From the IMG/VR virus record IMGVR_UViG_2718218127_000003: DNA of 21,552 nt; one strand, 5' to 3'. The notes below the pieces were generated by a model. The model was not told where the DNA came from. It did not search any database and saw only the letters and a list, made by a program, of their open reading frames with translations. The position numbers and the translations under genes are program-made. Source of the DNA: a virus (taxonomy: Duplodnaviria; Heunggongvirae; Uroviricota; Caudoviricetes). Below, in pieces: positions 2,476-15,239 of this stretch. Each line of letters starts with the position of its first letter. Position 1 is the first letter of the stretch.

Positions 2476-3057
2476 TTACCCTATAGGTGCTACTGGCCAT
2501 TCAATATCCGGAGCAGTTGTTGTATTAACACGGTTCAGCAACACCCGATACTTTTTCCAGGCTTCCAGCAACGAGTTTTCTTCCTCCGTTGCGATTTCCA
2601 GATCTACAGCATCCTGAAGTGGCGCAATATGCTCATTCGCTGCCTGCATCAGGCTGTTTTTTGTTTCTTCCGCCTCCCGGATCCGGAATAGTTTTTCTGC
2701 TTCTGCATCTTTCACCCAGGCTGTGCCGTTCCACTTCTGAAACTCCCCTTCCGGGGATAACCAAGTGGCATTTTCCGGTAACGGACCGAGTTCAGAAATA
2801 AATAACGCGTCGCCGGAAGCCACGTCATAAACCGTTTTACCCCGATGATCTTCAACGAGATGCCACGATGCCTCATCACTGTTGAAAACAGCCACGAAGC
2901 CTGCCGGAATATCTGGCGGTGCAATATCGGTACTGTTTGCTGGCAGACCTGTATGAGGCGGAATATATGCGTCACCTTCACCAATAAATTCATTAGTTCC
3001 GGCCAGCAGATTATAAATTTTTATGGTCCGTGGTTGTTCACTCATTCTGAATGCCAT
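2476..3057 (-). CDS. Phage tail fiber assembly protein (Tfa)
   Basis: The N-terminus [54 protein letters not shown] is characteristic of lambdoid Tfa chaperones. The ATG overlaps the stop of the upstream stf fragment (TAATG). Confidence 0.85.
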
Positions 3058-12702: not shown

Positions 12703-12903
12703 CTAATCTTTCGGATAGATATCCGGTCTTAAGTCAGATTTCGTAATTGCACCTGACGTGCATTGCTCAAGTTTTTTAGCCAGCACAAAACTGGCTTTTT
12801 TATAGCCATTGAAAACCAGCCGTAAGTAGCCAGGTGTTGAGCCAACTTTTCCGGCCAACTCGCCCTGCTGTTCTTTGGTTAAAGAGTCCCAATACGCTTT
12901 CAT
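12703..12903 (-). CDS. Cro-like HTH regulator (YdaS family), 66 aa
   Basis: MKAYWDSLTKEQQGELAGKVGSTPGYLRLVFNGYKKASFVLAKKLEQCTSGAITKSDLRPDIYPKD. ATG at 12901-12903 with SD GGAGGT. Divergent from the cI-like gene. Confidence 0.8.
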   Translation of the reverse strand: MKAYWDSLTKEQQGELAGKVGSTPGYLRLVFNGYKKASFVLAKKLEQCTSGAITKSDLRPDIYPKD

Positions 12904-12906
12904 ACA

Positions 12907-12978
12907 ATATGTACCTCCGGTGTACATATTACATGATTGAAATGAACCTTCAAGATACTTGTACCTTAACGGTACAAG
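12907..12978. promoter_or_regulatory. Immunity operator/promoter region (oR-like) with two palindromes between cro and cI
   Basis: ATATGTAC-ctccggt-GTACATAT (12907-12929) and CTTGTACC-ttaac-GGTACAAG (12958-12978) share the half-site (A/T)TGTACC. Confidence 0.5.
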
Positions 12979-12993
12979 GGTTTTAATTTCGTT

Positions 12994-13668
12994 ATGAAAA
13001 CAATCCATGACATCCGGCGGTCTAACGCCAGAAAACTGAGAGATGGTGTTGGCGGGAATTCTTCCTTTGCCACTATGATTGATCGCGAGCCAACCCAGAC
13101 CAGCAGGTTTATGGGAGATGGTGCTACTAAAAATATCGGTGACAGCATGGCACGACACATCGAAAAATGTTTCGACCTGCCTGTCGGATGGCTCGATCAA
13201 GAACACCAGACAACGAACATCACAAAAAAACCTGATGTTTCAATCACTAATAAACAAATCACATTAGTCCCTGTCATATCATGGGTACAGGCCGGAGCAT
13301 GGAAAGAAGTTGGATATTCTGAGGTTGATTTGAGCACAGCAGAAACGTATCCCTGCCCTGTACCCTGTGGGGAAATGACTTATATCTTGCGGGTGATAGG
13401 TGATTCAATGATTGATGAGTACCGCCCGGGAGACATGATTTTTGTCGATCCTGAAGTACCTGCCTGCCACGGTGACGACGTTATTGCATTGATGCACGAT
13501 ACAGGTGAAACCACCTTCAAAAGGTTGATAGAAGATGGGACACAGCGTTATCTCAAAGCGTTAAACCCAAACTGGCCTGAGCCTTACATTAAGATCAACG
13601 GTAATTGCTCTATAATTGGAACTGTGATTTTCTCAGGAAAACCAAGAAGATACAAAATCAAAGCCTAA
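12994..13668 (+). CDS. cI-like prophage repressor: N-terminal HTH, C-terminal S24 (LexA-like) autopeptidase
   Basis: The C-terminal domain has an AG cleavage site (VQAG/AW), the GDSM serine motif and a downstream Lys (TFKRL). The ATG has almost no SD, consistent with a leaderless pRM-type transcript. Confidence 0.85.
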   Translation: MKTIHDIRRSNARKLRDGVGGNSSFATMIDREPTQTSRFMGDGATKNIGDSMARHIEKCFDLPVGWLDQEHQTTNITKKPDVSITNKQITLVPVISWVQAGAWKEVGYSEVDLSTAETYPCPVPCGEMTYILRVIGDSMIDEYRPGDMIFVDPEVPACHGDDVIALMHDTGETTFKRLIEDGTQRYLKALNPNWPEPYIKINGNCSIIGTVIFSGKPRRYKIKA

Positions 13669-13688
13669 TCAATGTTTATGAACCTGCT

Positions 13689-13712
13689 TCGGCAGGTTTT
13701 TTTATACTTGAC
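13689..13712 (+). terminator. Intrinsic terminator after the cI-like gene
   Basis: AACCTGC-ttcg-GCAGGTT followed by TTTTTTT. Confidence 0.6.
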
Positions 13713-13715
13713 AAT

Positions 13716-13749
13716 GTACCTTTGAGATACATAATGTACCCAAGAGAAA
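13716..13749 (+). promoter_or_regulatory. pL-like promoter overlapped by an operator palindrome
   Basis: TTGACA-N16-CATAAT. The spacer contains ATGTACC-tttga-GATACAT (13722-13740), the same half-site and 5-bp spacing as the oR palindromes, plus a further ATGTACC at 13742-13748. Confidence 0.5.
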
Positions 13750-13816
13750 CAACAAACAGGCAGGACGCCCACGAAGTATCCGCCTGGGGCATATGAAGTC
13801 CAGGATGATTCGTTAG

Positions 13817-13846
13817 CAACAAAAAAGCGCCCTACAGGACGCTTAG
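13817..13846 (-). terminator. Intrinsic terminator downstream of the 173-aa gene
   Basis: On the minus strand: AAGCG-tcctgtaggg-CGCTT followed by TTTTGTTG. Confidence 0.45.
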
Positions 13847-13885
13847 CTCTTTAACAATCTGGGTATCATCCAACCAATGCAAGAT

Positions 13886-14407
13886 TTAAGGAATCCAAGG
13901 CGAATTCAGATCTCGCCCCAACTCACGTAATGATCTTGGTCGTTCGTACATCGGATTTTTTTCCATAAGAAATTTATTTTCACAGTGAAGGCAACGGCTT
14001 GTAAGAAAATGAGAAGTTTTACCTACTGGAAGCGGATGAAGTATCGATTTTATATTTTTGGAATAACAAAGTGGGCACAGATGCACAGTTATTTCTTTTC
14101 CACTCACAATTTCATTTTTAGAGTAAACAAAAGCACCAGAGTCAAGCTGATCAAGGACATATCCTTCTACCTTGGCACAAAAATCTTCAAACTCTGCAAT
14201 TTTTGCTTTGAGATGCATCACCTCTTCATCACGAAGGCGGATCGCATCGCCAAGAGAGAAGCATTCTGCCTGAAGCGTGATTAGTTTGTTCTGGAGTTCA
14301 ATGGTTGCAGCTTTAACTTCTGCATCCGTTTTCGCGTCATTAATAACCTTAGCAAGACCGGCAGTCTCCTTTATAGCGGCCATAGCCGCAGACAGTTCAG
14401 CTATCAC
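13886..14407 (-). CDS. Hypothetical protein, 173 aa: N-terminal coiled coil and C-terminal CxxC-X22-CxxC zinc-ribbon-like motif
   Basis: ...HLCPLCYSKNIKSILHPLPVGKTSHFLTSRCLHCENKF. The gene is AT-rich, convergent with cI, and has its own terminator. The start is uncertain (GTG at 14405-14407 or the ATG 8 codons in). Confidence 0.55.
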   Translation of the reverse strand: MIAELSAAMAAIKETAGLAKVINDAKTDAEVKAATIELQNKLITLQAECFSLGDAIRLRDEEVMHLKAKIAEFEDFCAKVEGYVLDQLDSGAFVYSKNEIVSGKEITVHLCPLCYSKNIKSILHPLPVGKTSHFLTSRCLHCENKFLMEKNPMYERPRSLRELGRDLNSPWIP

Positions 14408-14876
14408 GTTGAATACTCAGCTAGTTGTTGGGGATATCCAGATTAACCAAATCCTTGTTGTTGGGGAATAACTAGGTCCACCTCGCCTGATGTGGCTAAA
14501 AGCAGGCACATAACAGCTAAGTATTTTCAACCAGAGAGAATCCTTAGCGTTGTGGTGAATGCGGCTCAGCGCACGCGGGTTAAGGTTGAGGCTGACAGTC
14601 GACCTTCTGTGGATACCCACCCGCCTGGTGTGCAACCTTCGCCAGGCACCGGGAGGCACCCGGCACCACAACTTTATGCTGTGTGTAGTCCTGGCGGTAT
14701 CAGCTTGTACCCTTGCTTCCGGCTGGTACCGTCCTTTTTACAAAACAGAGAAGAGCATCACCGGACGACGGGCTCATAACCCAATCCATCCGGGCGGCTG
14801 CCACCGCAGGTGTTCTTCTCTGTTTTGTGGAGAAACCAACCGACCCTGCAGGGTCGATATGATGGGGAGCAGCAAA

Positions 14877-15239
14877 ATGGCTAGCGAACGCAGTACTGAT
14901 GTGCAGGCATTTATCGGGGAGCTGGACGGCGGCGTATTTGAAACCAAAATCGGCGCAGTTCTCAGTGAAGTCGCTTCCGGTGTGATGAACACGAAAACCA
15001 AAGGTAAGGTCTCGCTCAACCTGGAAATCGAACCGTTTGATGAGAACCGTGTAAAAATCAAACACAAACTCTCATATGTTCGCCCGACTAACCGCGGGAA
15101 AATTTCCGAAGAAGACACCACCGAAACGCCGATGTATGTCAATCGCGGTGGTCGCCTGACTATTCTGCAGGAAGACCAGGGACAATTACTGACTCTTGCC
15201 GGTGAACCTGACGGAAAACTCCGCGCAGCAGGTCGTTAA
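14877..15239 (+). CDS. YfdP-like prophage protein (120 aa)
   Basis: MASERSTDVQAFIGELDGGVFETKIGAVLSEV... ATG at 14877 is preceded by GGGGAG with 7-nt spacing. The upstream in-frame extension is GC-rich and low-complexity and is rejected. Confidence 0.7.
   Translation: MASERSTDVQAFIGELDGGVFETKIGAVLSEVASGVMNTKTKGKVSLNLEIEPFDENRVKIKHKLSYVRPTNRGKISEEDTTETPMYVNRGGRLTILQEDQGQLLTLAGEPDGKLRAAGR

Follow-up and report, generated by a model that had tools for sequence, protein, structure and literature searches.

A modular non-coding stretch upstream of yfdP in a lambdoid prophage carries conserved RNA structures, one of them tipped by a copy of the initiator-tRNA anticodon arm

The DNA analysed here (hereafter, the window) is a stretch of 21,552 nucleotides from a tailed virus (Caudoviricetes; IMG/VR record IMGVR_UViG_2718218127_000003). 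We focused on its positions 14408 to 14876, i.e., the interval that separates a moron gene from yfdP. The surroundings of this interval contain the following features:

13708-13735: oL/pL, the pL-like promoter
13751-13814: conserved leader RNA by pL, about +10 from the transcription start
13846-13856: perfect BoxA, about +105 from the transcription start (the exact core match is also given as 13846-13857)
13886-14407, minus strand: 173-aa moron gene, between pL and the interval
14877, plus strand: ATG start of yfdP

A preliminary description, made from the sequence, had presented the interval as a GC-rich stretch with repeats and a hairpin, devoid of any credible ORF and located downstream of a pL-like promoter. 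The promoter does lie upstream, but it does not adjoin the interval, which begins approximately 670 nt past the start of pL, with the moron intervening. The GC content is indeed of 0.52-0.58 over 14400-14850, against 0.37-0.45 in the flanks, and the repeats and the hairpin listed for 14408-14876 were all found in place. The RNA of positions 14500-14880 folds with an energy of −164 kcal/mol, compared to −130 ± 5.5 for shuffled sequences (z = −6.2), and none of 100 shuffles equals it. A scan for sigma-70 consensus promoters on both strands of 14408-14548 found none. Among complete E. coli genomes, around half (2859 of 5426) contain this interval, where it is annotated as a hypothetical or frameshifted protein.

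The ORFs of the interval gave no match in Pfam, in agreement with the preliminary description, and its forward ORFs gave none among the PHROGs; the only CDS that NCBI PGAP can call across it is a pseudo-CDS, a “frameshifted” hypothetical protein. We also looked for an intact gene in the homologous prophages, and found no annotated CDS in ST64B and only broken ORFs in phiNP. Moreover, the indels that distinguish the window from these two prophages measure 1, 20, and approximately 27 nt, none a multiple of three, and the substitutions compensate within RNA helices. Because of the lack of Pfam matches, the absence of a CDS in ST64B, the non-triplet indels, and the compensatory changes, we conclude that 14408-14876 is non-coding, modular DNA, with RNA modules on the plus strand. 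The opposite reading, a decayed or unrecognised gene, could take three forms: an N-type gene, as the preliminary description had envisaged; an N-terminal extension of yfdP (ORF 14559-15239, in frame with yfdP); or an antisense ORF (14700-15065) that matches phrog_3651 with E = 2e-78. The PGAP call would fit such a gene. However, the antisense ORF does not survive intact in phiNP and owes its conservation to its overlap with yfdP and module D (see below), and the indels and helix-compensating substitutions misfit a coding constraint. A coding gene of any of these kinds is thus extremely improbable, and the decayed N-type gene in particular was not borne out.

The 5′ part of the interval contains a repeat region, which we call module A, and two small hairpins:

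14421-14434 and 14454-14467, strand not assigned: module A, direct repeats (CTa)GTTGTTGGGGA, found by repeat search (span 14421-14475)
14478-14508, plus strand: hairpin CCACC..GUGG, then AAAAGCAGGC
14516-14548, plus strand: hairpin GCUAAGUAUUUUC / GAGAAUCCUUAGC, from the inverted repeat and the MFE fold

The direct repeats are bracketed by CTAG at 14421 and 14472, this CTAG...CTAG bracket being itself an inverted repeat (CTAGTTGTT / AATAACTAG). Module A lies in the 5′ flank of the divergent moron, and in SfV, which is devoid of this moron, the similarity to the window begins only at 14478. The repeats belong to the moron cassette, of which they may be a regulatory site or the end. We rejected them as oL, since 14380-14560 contains no further copy of the cI/cro operators (TGTACN7GTACA) and has no word of 8 nt or more in common with the oR region; oL/pL lies by the leader RNA. 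As for the first hairpin, the CCACCNNGCCUGAUGUGG..AAAAGCAGGC block recurs 5′ of the DicF-like module described below, in loci with and without the core that follows here.

This core, module B, is organised as follows:

14549-14672, plus strand: module B, STnc100/PasD-type RNA core (Rfam match, covariation)
14549-57 / 14664-72, plus strand: closing stem P1
within 14549-14672, plus strand: junction GGUGAAU
14561-76, plus strand: P2, with a bulged A
14582-88 / 14633-39, plus strand: pseudoknot AAGGUUG / CAACCUU, the 3′ partner lying in the P5 loop
14623-30 / 14640-47, plus strand: P5
14649-63, plus strand: P6, CCGGG-AGGCA-CCCGG, directly next to the 3′ strand of P1

Module B is a compact pseudoknotted RNA domain, a divergent member of the STnc100/PasD family. 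The Rfam model STnc100 (RF02076) aligns over its full length (1-206) to 14519-14741, with 40.5 bits and E = 3.4e-7. This score is below the gathering score of 47 bits, as are those of SfV (39.5), phage P1 (37.8), ST64B (35.1), and Qin (34.4 bits), while VT2-Sakai (207.7) and HK639 (52.6 bits) exceed it. The architecture of the family is nevertheless found at 14549-14672, with the closing stem, the GGUGAAU junction, P2, and the terminal CCGGG-AGGCA-CCCGG hairpin. GGUGAAU and ACCGGGAGGCACCCGGCACC are invariant and common to module B and STnc100-type cores. In a set of 46 non-redundant copies, window included, P1, P2, and P6 all present compensatory changes. The pseudoknot covaries as well, and can form over at least 6 nt in 84% of the matched pairs versus 27% of the mismatched pairs. 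The preliminary description had proposed an Rfam scan, folding, and covariation as checks, and these reveal a conserved RNA structure, with an STnc100 match and helices that covary. The prophage-borne character and the succession of a core, a linker, and a Rho-independent terminator are also shared with STnc100 and PasD. On the contrary, the sequence of P2 and the inner hairpins are unlike theirs; the window core is located in the early-left operon, 5′ of yfdP, whereas theirs are late, downstream of Q or stx2; and the pseudoknot is not seen in the Rfam STnc100 consensus line, to the fold of which it constitutes an addition. In one subfamily only, P2 bears what we take to be a resemblance to RNase P RNA, which we dismissed as a coincidence.

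We found the B core in no fewer than 120 IMG/VR contigs; among the 128 distinct copies listed, most have a variable linker of 25-45 nt and then an intrinsic terminator after it. It can also directly precede an RBS and an ATG, in P1-like phages, or lie before dicB, in Qin. Furthermore, B-type cores occur two or three in tandem, also by tRNA genes in late leaders, as well as downstream of Q or stx2 and in phage P1, where no pL exists. PasD and STnc100 have been reported as discrete, Hfq-bound prophage sRNAs of common origin, with target sets (bioRxiv 10.64898/2026.05.13.724894).

Immediately downstream of this core comes module C:

14673-14739, plus strand: module C, DicF-like module (fold, conservation)
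14673-91, plus strand: single-stranded linker UUUAUGCUGUGUGUAGUCC, with the putative seed GCUGUGUGUAGUC
14693-14704 / 14722-14733, plus strand: intrinsic terminator with a 12-bp stem, U5 (T5) at 14735-14739

Module C consists of a conserved single-stranded stretch and a DicF-type Rho-independent terminator. The hairpin with a T5 run that had been noticed earlier as a possible terminator is confirmed, with its 12-bp stem and its run at 14735-14739, and it provides the 3′ terminator that STnc100 carries after a variable linker. A consensus terminator scan, limited to loops of 8 nt, gave no call at 14693-14739, only because the loop of this hairpin is longer. The module folds with −23.7 kcal/mol (z = −3.5), and its stem is retained in ST64B through compensatory changes and an insertion. 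Contigs from Salmonella, Citrobacter, Enterobacter, and Buttiauxella keep the sequence GCUGUGUG(U/A)AGUC, including those with a different hairpin and those that do not match the strict pattern of the B core. Nearly all the relatives have an intrinsic terminator between pL and the first early-left gene.

The likeness to DicF lies in the terminator and in the location. Indeed, the terminator hairpin starts with UGGCGGUAUCAG (14692-14703), 12 nt identical to K-12 DicF, and both terminators end CCGYCCUUUUU. Each is the 3′ end of an sRNA-type module that lies within the early operon close to the immunity region of a lambdoid prophage; in the window as in Qin, the module is followed by a structured RNA enclosed by a long stem and then by the first downstream gene. 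A Qin-type upstream region precedes the same DicF-like module in other loci. K-12 Qin contains the same parts in the order dicF, B-type core, dicB, whereas the order in the window is permuted (core, sRNA, module D). The Rfam model DicF (RF00039) reaches 20.5 bits (E = 0.08) on 14680-14734, below its gathering score of 48 bits, compared with 76.7 for K-12 dicF. The 5′ seed by which DicF pairs with ftsZ and manX, UUUCUGGUGACGUUU, is absent, the window having UUUAUGCUGUGUGUAGUCC at this place, and the putative seed GCUGUGUGUAGUC is unrelated to that of DicF (UUUCUGGUGACGUU). Hence, the targeting of ftsZ and manX cannot be assumed. Targets of the putative seed were sought within the window, where complementarity is at chance level. 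The preliminary description had raised an sRNA among other possibilities, and an sRNA-type module is present, which joins a structured body through a linker to an intrinsic terminator and is related to both STnc100 and DicF.

This association of a folded core with a terminator could also be read as a riboswitch. Module B would be an orphan aptamer and module C (or an RBS in other loci) its expression platform, a ligand determining whether transcription stops at 14739 or continues into yfdP. The compact fold, the pseudoknot, and the invariant junction nucleotides are aptamer-like, and the cores do mostly precede a terminator or, in P1-like phages and Qin, the start of a gene. However, across 77 distinct copies, complementarity between the 3′ part of the core and either terminator arm does not exceed that obtained with shuffled arms (4.1 versus 4.4 nt and 3.8 versus 4.1 nt), so that the alternative pairing by which core and terminator would compete in a riboswitch gives no signal. 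The linkers between core and terminator are long and unconserved, the tandem copies and those by tRNA genes in late leaders do not fit an aptamer, and neither does the description of PasD and STnc100 as sRNAs with target sets. We thus hold the riboswitch for quite improbable and favor an sRNA-type body for module B.

Module D lies between the terminator and the ribosome-binding site of yfdP:

14740-14828, plus strand: module D, three-way-junction RNA (fold, covariation)
14740-59 / 14809-28, plus strand: P1, 20 contiguous bp
14761-92, plus strand: P2, with the invariant tip GACGGGCUCAUAACCCAAUCC at 14767-87
14794-807, plus strand: P3

A perfect inverted repeat of 14 bp had been noticed at this place; we recovered it (CAAAACAGAGAAGA at 14741-14754 and TCTTCTCTGTTTTG at 14814-14827, enclosing 59 nt) and found that it is the core of a longer one (14740-14764 / 14804-28; 25 nt, 84% complementary). 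By our own arithmetic, around 2e-4 such perfect 14-bp repeats within 100 nt would be expected by chance in a stretch of 470 bp. The MFE of module D is −45.5 kcal/mol (z = −7.3). In 15 diverse copies, 98.2% of the cells are paired and 8 pairs are changed on both sides, a result matched by none of 500 shuffles. The motif occurs in at least 120 IMG/VR contigs and at least 25 species genomes. The 21 nt of the tip do not vary across Enterobacterales, whereas P1, P3, and the base of P2 undergo compensatory changes or are replaced.

Within this tip, positions 14769-82 (CGGGCUCAUAACCC) are 14 contiguous nt identical to the anticodon stem-loop of K-12 metY tRNA-fMet, comprising the three G-C pairs that are the mark of initiator tRNAs and the CUCAUAA loop. 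The stem pairs that flank this segment in the tRNA are lost, C.A and A.A standing for C-G and U-A. Module D is therefore a conserved three-way junction, the tip of which reproduces exactly the anticodon stem and loop of the initiator tRNA. It is not a tRNA: it has neither D nor T arm, the anticodon arm alone being copied, and sits on a three-way junction, with no cloverleaf. ARAGORN calls no tRNA in the window, in the SfV locus, or in the ST64B locus, and the Rfam tRNA model gives no match in the window at E ≤ 10. Neither is it a copy of an attP site, since this would reach the 3′ end of the tRNA and the identity to tRNA-fMet ends at the anticodon arm. Regulatory RNAs that mimic tRNAs exist, e.g., the thrS operator, with which module D can be compared. 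As the Rfam search matched module D to no family, and as none of the titles and abstracts listed dealt with a phage mimic of initiator tRNA or with regulation upstream of yfdP, we consider it as a previously undescribed RNA.

In some copies of module D, hereafter class II, the RNA comes directly after tRNA-Asn and tRNA-Arg, P1 is reduced to 7 bp, and a CCA-like tail is present, a setting that suggests a release by the tRNA-processing machinery. These copies bear on another reading, in which module D would be only an element of RNA processing and stability, a hairpin cut by RNase III ahead of yfdP and comparable to the site in the lambda N leader, its tip being a functionless vestige of a phage tRNA gene. 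The location of the 20-bp P1, directly between the terminator and the ribosome-binding site, would suit this role, and the presence of class II copies in tRNA arrays is compatible with a descent from tRNA genes. On the other hand, a vestige would drift, and the 21-nt tip has remained invariant while the helices around it changed; class II copies keep this tip too, and their P1, being only 7 bp long, cannot be an RNase III site. We therefore judge this reading rather unlikely, and we prefer to see the tip as the part of module D that would be displayed to a partner.

Between module D and yfdP lies module E, a hairpin ahead of the yfdP ribosome-binding site:

14829-36, plus strand: conserved tail GGAGAAAC
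14841-56, plus strand: palindromic hairpin CGACCCUG / CAGGGUCG
14864-69, plus strand: GGGGAG, Shine-Dalgarno sequence of yfdP (ATG at 14877)

Homologues also have a hairpin at this position, with other sequences (e.g., GGCGGUGGCAGCCGCC or CGCCCCUACGGGGGC).

Since a strong intrinsic terminator separates pL from the first early-left gene, antitermination is needed for the expression of the operon. Phages of the SfV/ST64B group have been reported to be without an N homologue, and early antitermination in N-less phages of the SfV/ST64B/LLS type has been stated as an open question (PMC12315714). The preliminary description had proposed a nut- or put-like antitermination RNA acting in cis, and a highly structured stretch of the pL operon of an N-less phage, 5′ of its first early-left gene, would suit such a processive antiterminator of the pL transcript. 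Like HK022 and HK639, the phage presumably lacks N and has strong terminators to be read through in its pL operon. However, a nut site comprises a BoxA, a boxB hairpin, and a cognate N, and the BoxA consensus (GYTCTTTAANA; PMC5725501) is not found in 14408-14876, the sole exact core of the window being at 13846, outside of the interval. On inspection, neither the sequence nor the two-stem fold of the put sites of HK022 and HK639 (CGAACGGCGCG...AAACCAUGCGUCGG...CAGGAUGA) is recognisable there, and modules B, C, and D are unlike put in both respects. A put site is located no further than about 300 nt into the pL or pR transcript, whereas these modules are 800-1100 nt from the transcription start, the conserved leader RNA and BoxA being those that lie close to it. 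Moreover, B-type cores normally precede terminators, which define discrete sRNAs, and exist past Q or stx2 and in P1, where there is no pL transcript to modify. An antiterminator located in the interval is thus very improbable, and this proposal did not hold.

The conserved leader RNA and the BoxA, which lie right after pL and about 700 bp upstream of the interval, are better candidates for antitermination. The leader RNA is the positional equivalent of putL, yet it is not a put homologue: its covariance model matches nothing in HK022 or HK639, the record of the latter annotating a putL-like RNA. The AGGAUGA common to the leader RNA and put was rejected as a sign of homology, for it belongs to a stem plus a tail and not to a hairpin loop. 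In mEp460, modules C, D, and E are present, and the leader RNA was not detected in the 5.2 kb examined, which tells against the explanation given below.

Taken as a whole, with the mechanism that we propose below, the explanation that we find on balance probable is that the window comes from an N-less lambdoid prophage of the SfV/ST64B/CPS-53 type, that the interval serves its early-left (pL) operon as a non-coding leader, and that this leader was assembled from mobile RNA modules. Transcription initiated at pL would run into modules B and C. An RNA polymerase without resistance to termination would halt at module C and generate an STnc100/PasD-like sRNA, the 5′ trimming of which might produce a shorter DicF-like sRNA acting on mRNAs by its putative seed, through Hfq. 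A polymerase made processive near pL, by the leader RNA and/or BoxA as candidate signals, would pass the terminator and transcribe module D, the P1 helix of which begins 1 nt past the U-tract and is, judged by its length alone, a likely RNase III substrate. Cleavage there would detach the sRNA from the yfdPQR mRNA, by analogy with the action of RNase III on the region past DicF in Qin. RNase III has been reported to make a 72-nt DicF species (PMC9438474). In Qin, a stem of approximately 15 bp surrounds the B-type core that comes after dicF. The leader of the lambda N gene also carries an RNase III site. In all these cases, a long, near-perfect helix stands between an upstream RNA signal and the RBS of the first pL-operon gene. 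The helix of module D, a predicted substrate, differs from these in enclosing a conserved, functional-looking RNA instead of a plain hairpin.

The cleavage would thereby free the P2-P3 part of module D as a small RNA displaying the initiator-tRNA anticodon arm. For this RNA, the role that we prefer, reasoning from the identity of its tip, and that we put forward as a speculation, is to bind, as a decoy or a ligand, some factor recognising the anticodon arm of tRNA-fMet. The loss of the flanking stem pairs of the tRNA tells against it. Salmonella and Shigella VapC cuts tRNA-fMet within its anticodon stem-loop (PMC7180214), and a nuclease of this type could be such a factor, as could the 30S P site with IF3, or MetRS. 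In its full form, this proposal makes of module D a small structured phage RNA of a new class, which RNase III or the tRNA-processing machinery would cut out and which would present its mimic as a decoy or competitive inhibitor of the host factors that recognise tRNA-fMet; in this form, we regard it as unlikely.

These results have several consequences. The interval called a hypothetical or frameshifted protein in E. coli genomes is RNA. The STnc100/PasD and DicF families, with the K-12 Qin prophage as a further instance, are tied into one modular architecture. The question of early antitermination in N-less phages is narrowed to two testable elements located by pL, the leader RNA and BoxA. 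If the decoy proposal is true, VapC-type toxin nucleases would be the most attractive partners of module D and would then work as an anti-phage defence, the 30S P site with IF3 and MetRS being other candidates. Modules B and D, with the previously undescribed pL-leader RNA, would in that case make the early-left leader of SfV/ST64B-type phages a cassette of host-directed RNAs, and module D, as a decoy for anticodon-arm nucleases or as a ligand of the ribosome or synthetase, would represent a new RNA-based device for counter-defence or host takeover.

The window is E. coli prophage DNA, lambdoid and of the SfV/ST64B/CPS-53 type. Over 14300-14950 it shows 100% identity to the XD35 and MB06022 chromosomes, and a match to this segment is present in 2859 of 5426 complete E. 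coli genomes. The features discussed here are the following:

about 12731-12931, minus strand: cro
12910 and 12960: operators TGTACN7GTACA
13029-13655, plus strand: cI, with its own terminator at 13680-13699
13708-13735: pL promoter TTGACA-16-CATAAT, overlapped by a third operator (13715-13731)
13751-13814, plus strand: 64-nt leader RNA directly after pL (stem S0, block AGGCAGGACGCCCACGAAGUAGCCG, hairpin H2)
13825-13844: bidirectional terminator hairpin of the moron
13846-13856, plus strand: BoxA, perfect match, GCTCTTTAACA
13886-14407, minus strand: 173-aa moron, phrog_1244, a PHROG of unknown function
14421-14475: module A, direct repeats
14549-14672: module B, STnc100/PasD-type core
14673-14739: module C, linker and DicF-like terminator
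14740-14828: module D, three-way junction
14841-14856: module E, hairpin
from ATG 14877, plus strand: yfdP, then yfdQ and yfdR, directly after the stretch
2516-2714, minus strand: IS009 (RF02111), Rfam 212 bits, inside the minus-strand ORF 2476-3057

The order pL, moron, 14408-14876 and yfdPQR therefore places the stretch within the pL transcript, with its first base some 670 nt past the transcription start. The XD35 locus (L001) is identical to the window over 14300-14950, yet its pL and operator sequences upstream of the leader RNA differ (left of about 13760), which indicates a mosaic joint at the start of the leader RNA.

The preliminary description had seen in 14408-14876 a GC-rich, repeat-bearing DNA devoid of any credible ORF, and all of this holds. 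The repeats lie where they were reported, GC content is 0.52-0.58 in the stretch as against 0.37-0.45, and the sequence folds much better than its shuffles (z = -6.2). None of the six overlapping ORFs matches Pfam and none of the forward ones matches a PHROG; the ST64B annotation has no gene from cI to the yfdP homologue, and PGAP calls nothing across the stretch but a "frameshifted" pseudo-CDS. The antisense ORF 14700-15065 (minus strand), which overlaps yfdP and module D, does match phrog_3651 (E = 2e-78). However, it is disrupted in Citrobacter phage phiNP, so that this family is probably an annotation artefact built from mis-called ORFs. Compared with ST64B and phiNP, the stretch shows indels of 1, 20 and about 27 nt, and substitutions that compensate each other in helices. 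These argue against a decayed gene, an earlier suggestion that is not supported. The stretch is a genuine non-coding, modular RNA leader, whose functions are proposed here from its anatomy and its relatives. Its first module, the direct repeats, is part of the moron cassette. SfV carries a different insert there and resembles the window from 14478 onward; a promoter scan found no consensus promoter around the repeats. At the other end, hairpin E, which precedes the yfdP Shine-Dalgarno sequence, is kept in position and not in sequence.

An sRNA was among the readings first proposed, and modules B and C indeed belong to known prophage sRNA families, as a divergent member or a variant. At gathering thresholds, Rfam matches nothing in the stretch, IS009 being the sole match in the whole window. 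By E-value, the STnc100 model aligns end to end with 14519-14741 (40.5 bits, E = 3.4e-7; gathering score 47). It gives 207.7 bits in VT2-Sakai (downstream of stx2B), 52.6 in HK639 (downstream of Q), 39.5 in SfV, 37.8 in P1, 35.1 in ST64B and 34.4 in K-12 Qin. STnc100 and PasD have been described as related sRNAs that prophages encode and Hfq binds, with no known function (bioRxiv 10.64898/2026.05.13.724894). A search pattern made of the two invariant blocks, GGTGAA...CCGGGNNNNNCCCGGCACC, retrieved the B core from at least 120 IMG/VR contigs; in some of them it is present two or three times. Across 46 non-redundant copies, we found covariation in the closing stem P1 (e.g., GCAUGGUG/CACCAUGC, GUUGCGGUG/CACCGCAAC) and in the bulged hairpin P2 (CCCCC..GG-A-GGG vs GCGGC..GC-A-CGC). 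P6 is invariant within this set, and variants occur outside it (GGUGG/CCACC, CCUGG/CCAGG). Moreover, the 6-11 nt directly 3' of P2 pair with the P5 loop in a pseudoknot, AAGGUUG/CAACCUU in the window and CUGGUG/UACCAG, CCAGCC/GGCUGG or AGACUGACAAA/UUUGUCAGUCU in other copies; a pairing of at least 6 nt is present in 84% of copies with matched partners against 27% with mismatched ones. On nine phage contigs (L016, L019, L027, L028, L032, L045, L063, L074, L083), STnc100-type cores recur two to three times a few hundred bases apart, and their inner hairpins and pseudoknot sequences differ from copy to copy.

Most B cores are followed by a variable linker of 25-45 nt and an intrinsic terminator, and a few (P1-like phages; Qin before dicB) directly by an RBS. 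A test for a riboswitch-like design, with the 3' strand of the core competing with a terminator arm, gave no signal in 77 copies. The terminator of module C (12-bp stem and U5, -23.7 kcal/mol, z = -3.5) is longer and altered on both strands in ST64B, and is thus conserved as a structure. Its 5' arm, UGGCGGUAUCAG, is identical to K-12 DicF, although the module scores only 20.5 bits on the Rfam DicF model, against 48. Contigs from Salmonella, Citrobacter, Enterobacter and Buttiauxella conserve the single-stranded GCUGUGUG(U/A)AGUC before this hairpin, including those that have an unrelated hairpin or do not match the strict B-core pattern, while linkers at other loci differ. Such a pattern is typical of sRNA seeds and makes this segment a putative seed. 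In K-12 Qin these parts are arranged differently: first comes a Qin-type upstream region, which many IMG/VR loci also have 5' of module C, then dicF, a B-type core and the dicB RBS. In this core, which the K-12 record (L267, about 745-895) leaves unannotated, P6 reads CCUGG/CCAGG and the outer stem is extended to about 15 bp (GUGAAUUUUGUGAUG/CAUCACAAAAUUCAU). DicF arises by termination together with trimming by RNase E, or, in a 72-nt form, via RNase III (PMC9438474); we infer that the extended stem, which lies where the cut is expected, is the probable RNase III site for this form.

A nut/put-like signal inside 14408-14876, also proposed earlier, is not supported, and antitermination is more probably encoded near pL, by the leader RNA or BoxA. 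Absence of N has been reported for phages of this group, at least for the ST64B-like LLS (PMC12315714). The leader RNA, a candidate new antiterminator RNA, comprises closing stem S0 (with one A.C mismatch in the window), a 25-nt invariant block and covarying hairpin H2, with compensatory changes in 10 of 11 pairs, 94.7% of cells paired and 0 of 500 shuffles as good. The promoter/operator types that precede it are unrelated and number at least 10, in phages of E. coli, Shigella, Salmonella, Citrobacter, Yersinia and Pectobacterium; it follows the repressor gene in SfV, ST64B, phiNP, mEp237, SPN3UB, Yersinia YeP1 and Pectobacterium ZF40. Its covariance model gives a single hit per phage, but none in HK022 or HK639. 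It is thus not a put homologue, although its position is equivalent to that of putL; the putL-like RNA annotated in the HK639 record clearly resembles HK022 putL. The HK639 record (L266, 4911-4970) also annotates an "M3-like RNA" after cII. BoxA (consensus GYTCTTTAANA, PMC5725501) directly follows hairpin 13825-13844, an rrn-like order, and lies about 105 nt past the pL start. Of 46 distinct leaders, 15 have the same spacing, and BoxA matches total only 22 in 2.2 Mb of comparison loci. BoxA may shield from Rho the untranslated antisense run of about 660 nt across the moron.

Module D appears to be undescribed and the most interesting part of the stretch. The 14-bp inverted repeat noticed earlier lies within its 20-bp P1. 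The junction folds at -45.5 kcal/mol (z = -7.3), and among 15 diverse copies 98.2% of cells are paired (37-52% in slid controls), with 8 pairs changed on both sides and 0 of 500 shuffles as good. P3 is swapped for hairpins of other lengths, and the P2 tip, GACGGGCUCAUAAYCCAAUCC, is invariant. Fourteen nucleotides of this tip, CGGGCUCAUAACCC (14769-14782), are identical to the anticodon stem-loop of the K-12 initiator tRNA gene metY, covering three G-C pairs and the loop CUCAUAA. No Rfam family matches D, and our literature search found no paper on such a tRNA-fMet anticodon-arm mimic. D was also considered as a tRNA, and this was rejected. At least 120 IMG/VR contigs carry the motif, and so do 25 species representatives, of which 23 are Enterobacterales and the other two may be contamination. 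The invariant 21-nt tip sits on a different stem in an Acidobacteriaceae MAG contig, assigned to a distant phylum (L252, about 2560-2640), either as contamination or as a sign of a universal partner.

Two arrangements of D are found. In class I, as in the window, terminator, U-tract, D, tail GGAGAAAC and hairpin E precede the RBS of a yfdP-like or other gene. In class II, from Klebsiella phages, D starts 4 nt past the 3' end of a tRNA gene downstream of Q; its P1 there measures 7 bp and its tail is CCA-like. In Klebsiella phage GZ7 (L131, 1503-1585) it follows the tRNA-Arg of a tRNA-Asn/tRNA-Arg array; there, as at similar IMG/VR loci with tRNA arrays, it resembles a D-arm-less tRNA-like RNA with a 7-bp acceptor-like stem. 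The P2-P3 part would be excisable in both: RNase III could release it in class I, and tRNA-processing enzymes in class II. A decoy role of D is conceivable, because VapC toxins of Salmonella and Shigella cut tRNA-fMet in its anticodon stem-loop (PMC7180214).
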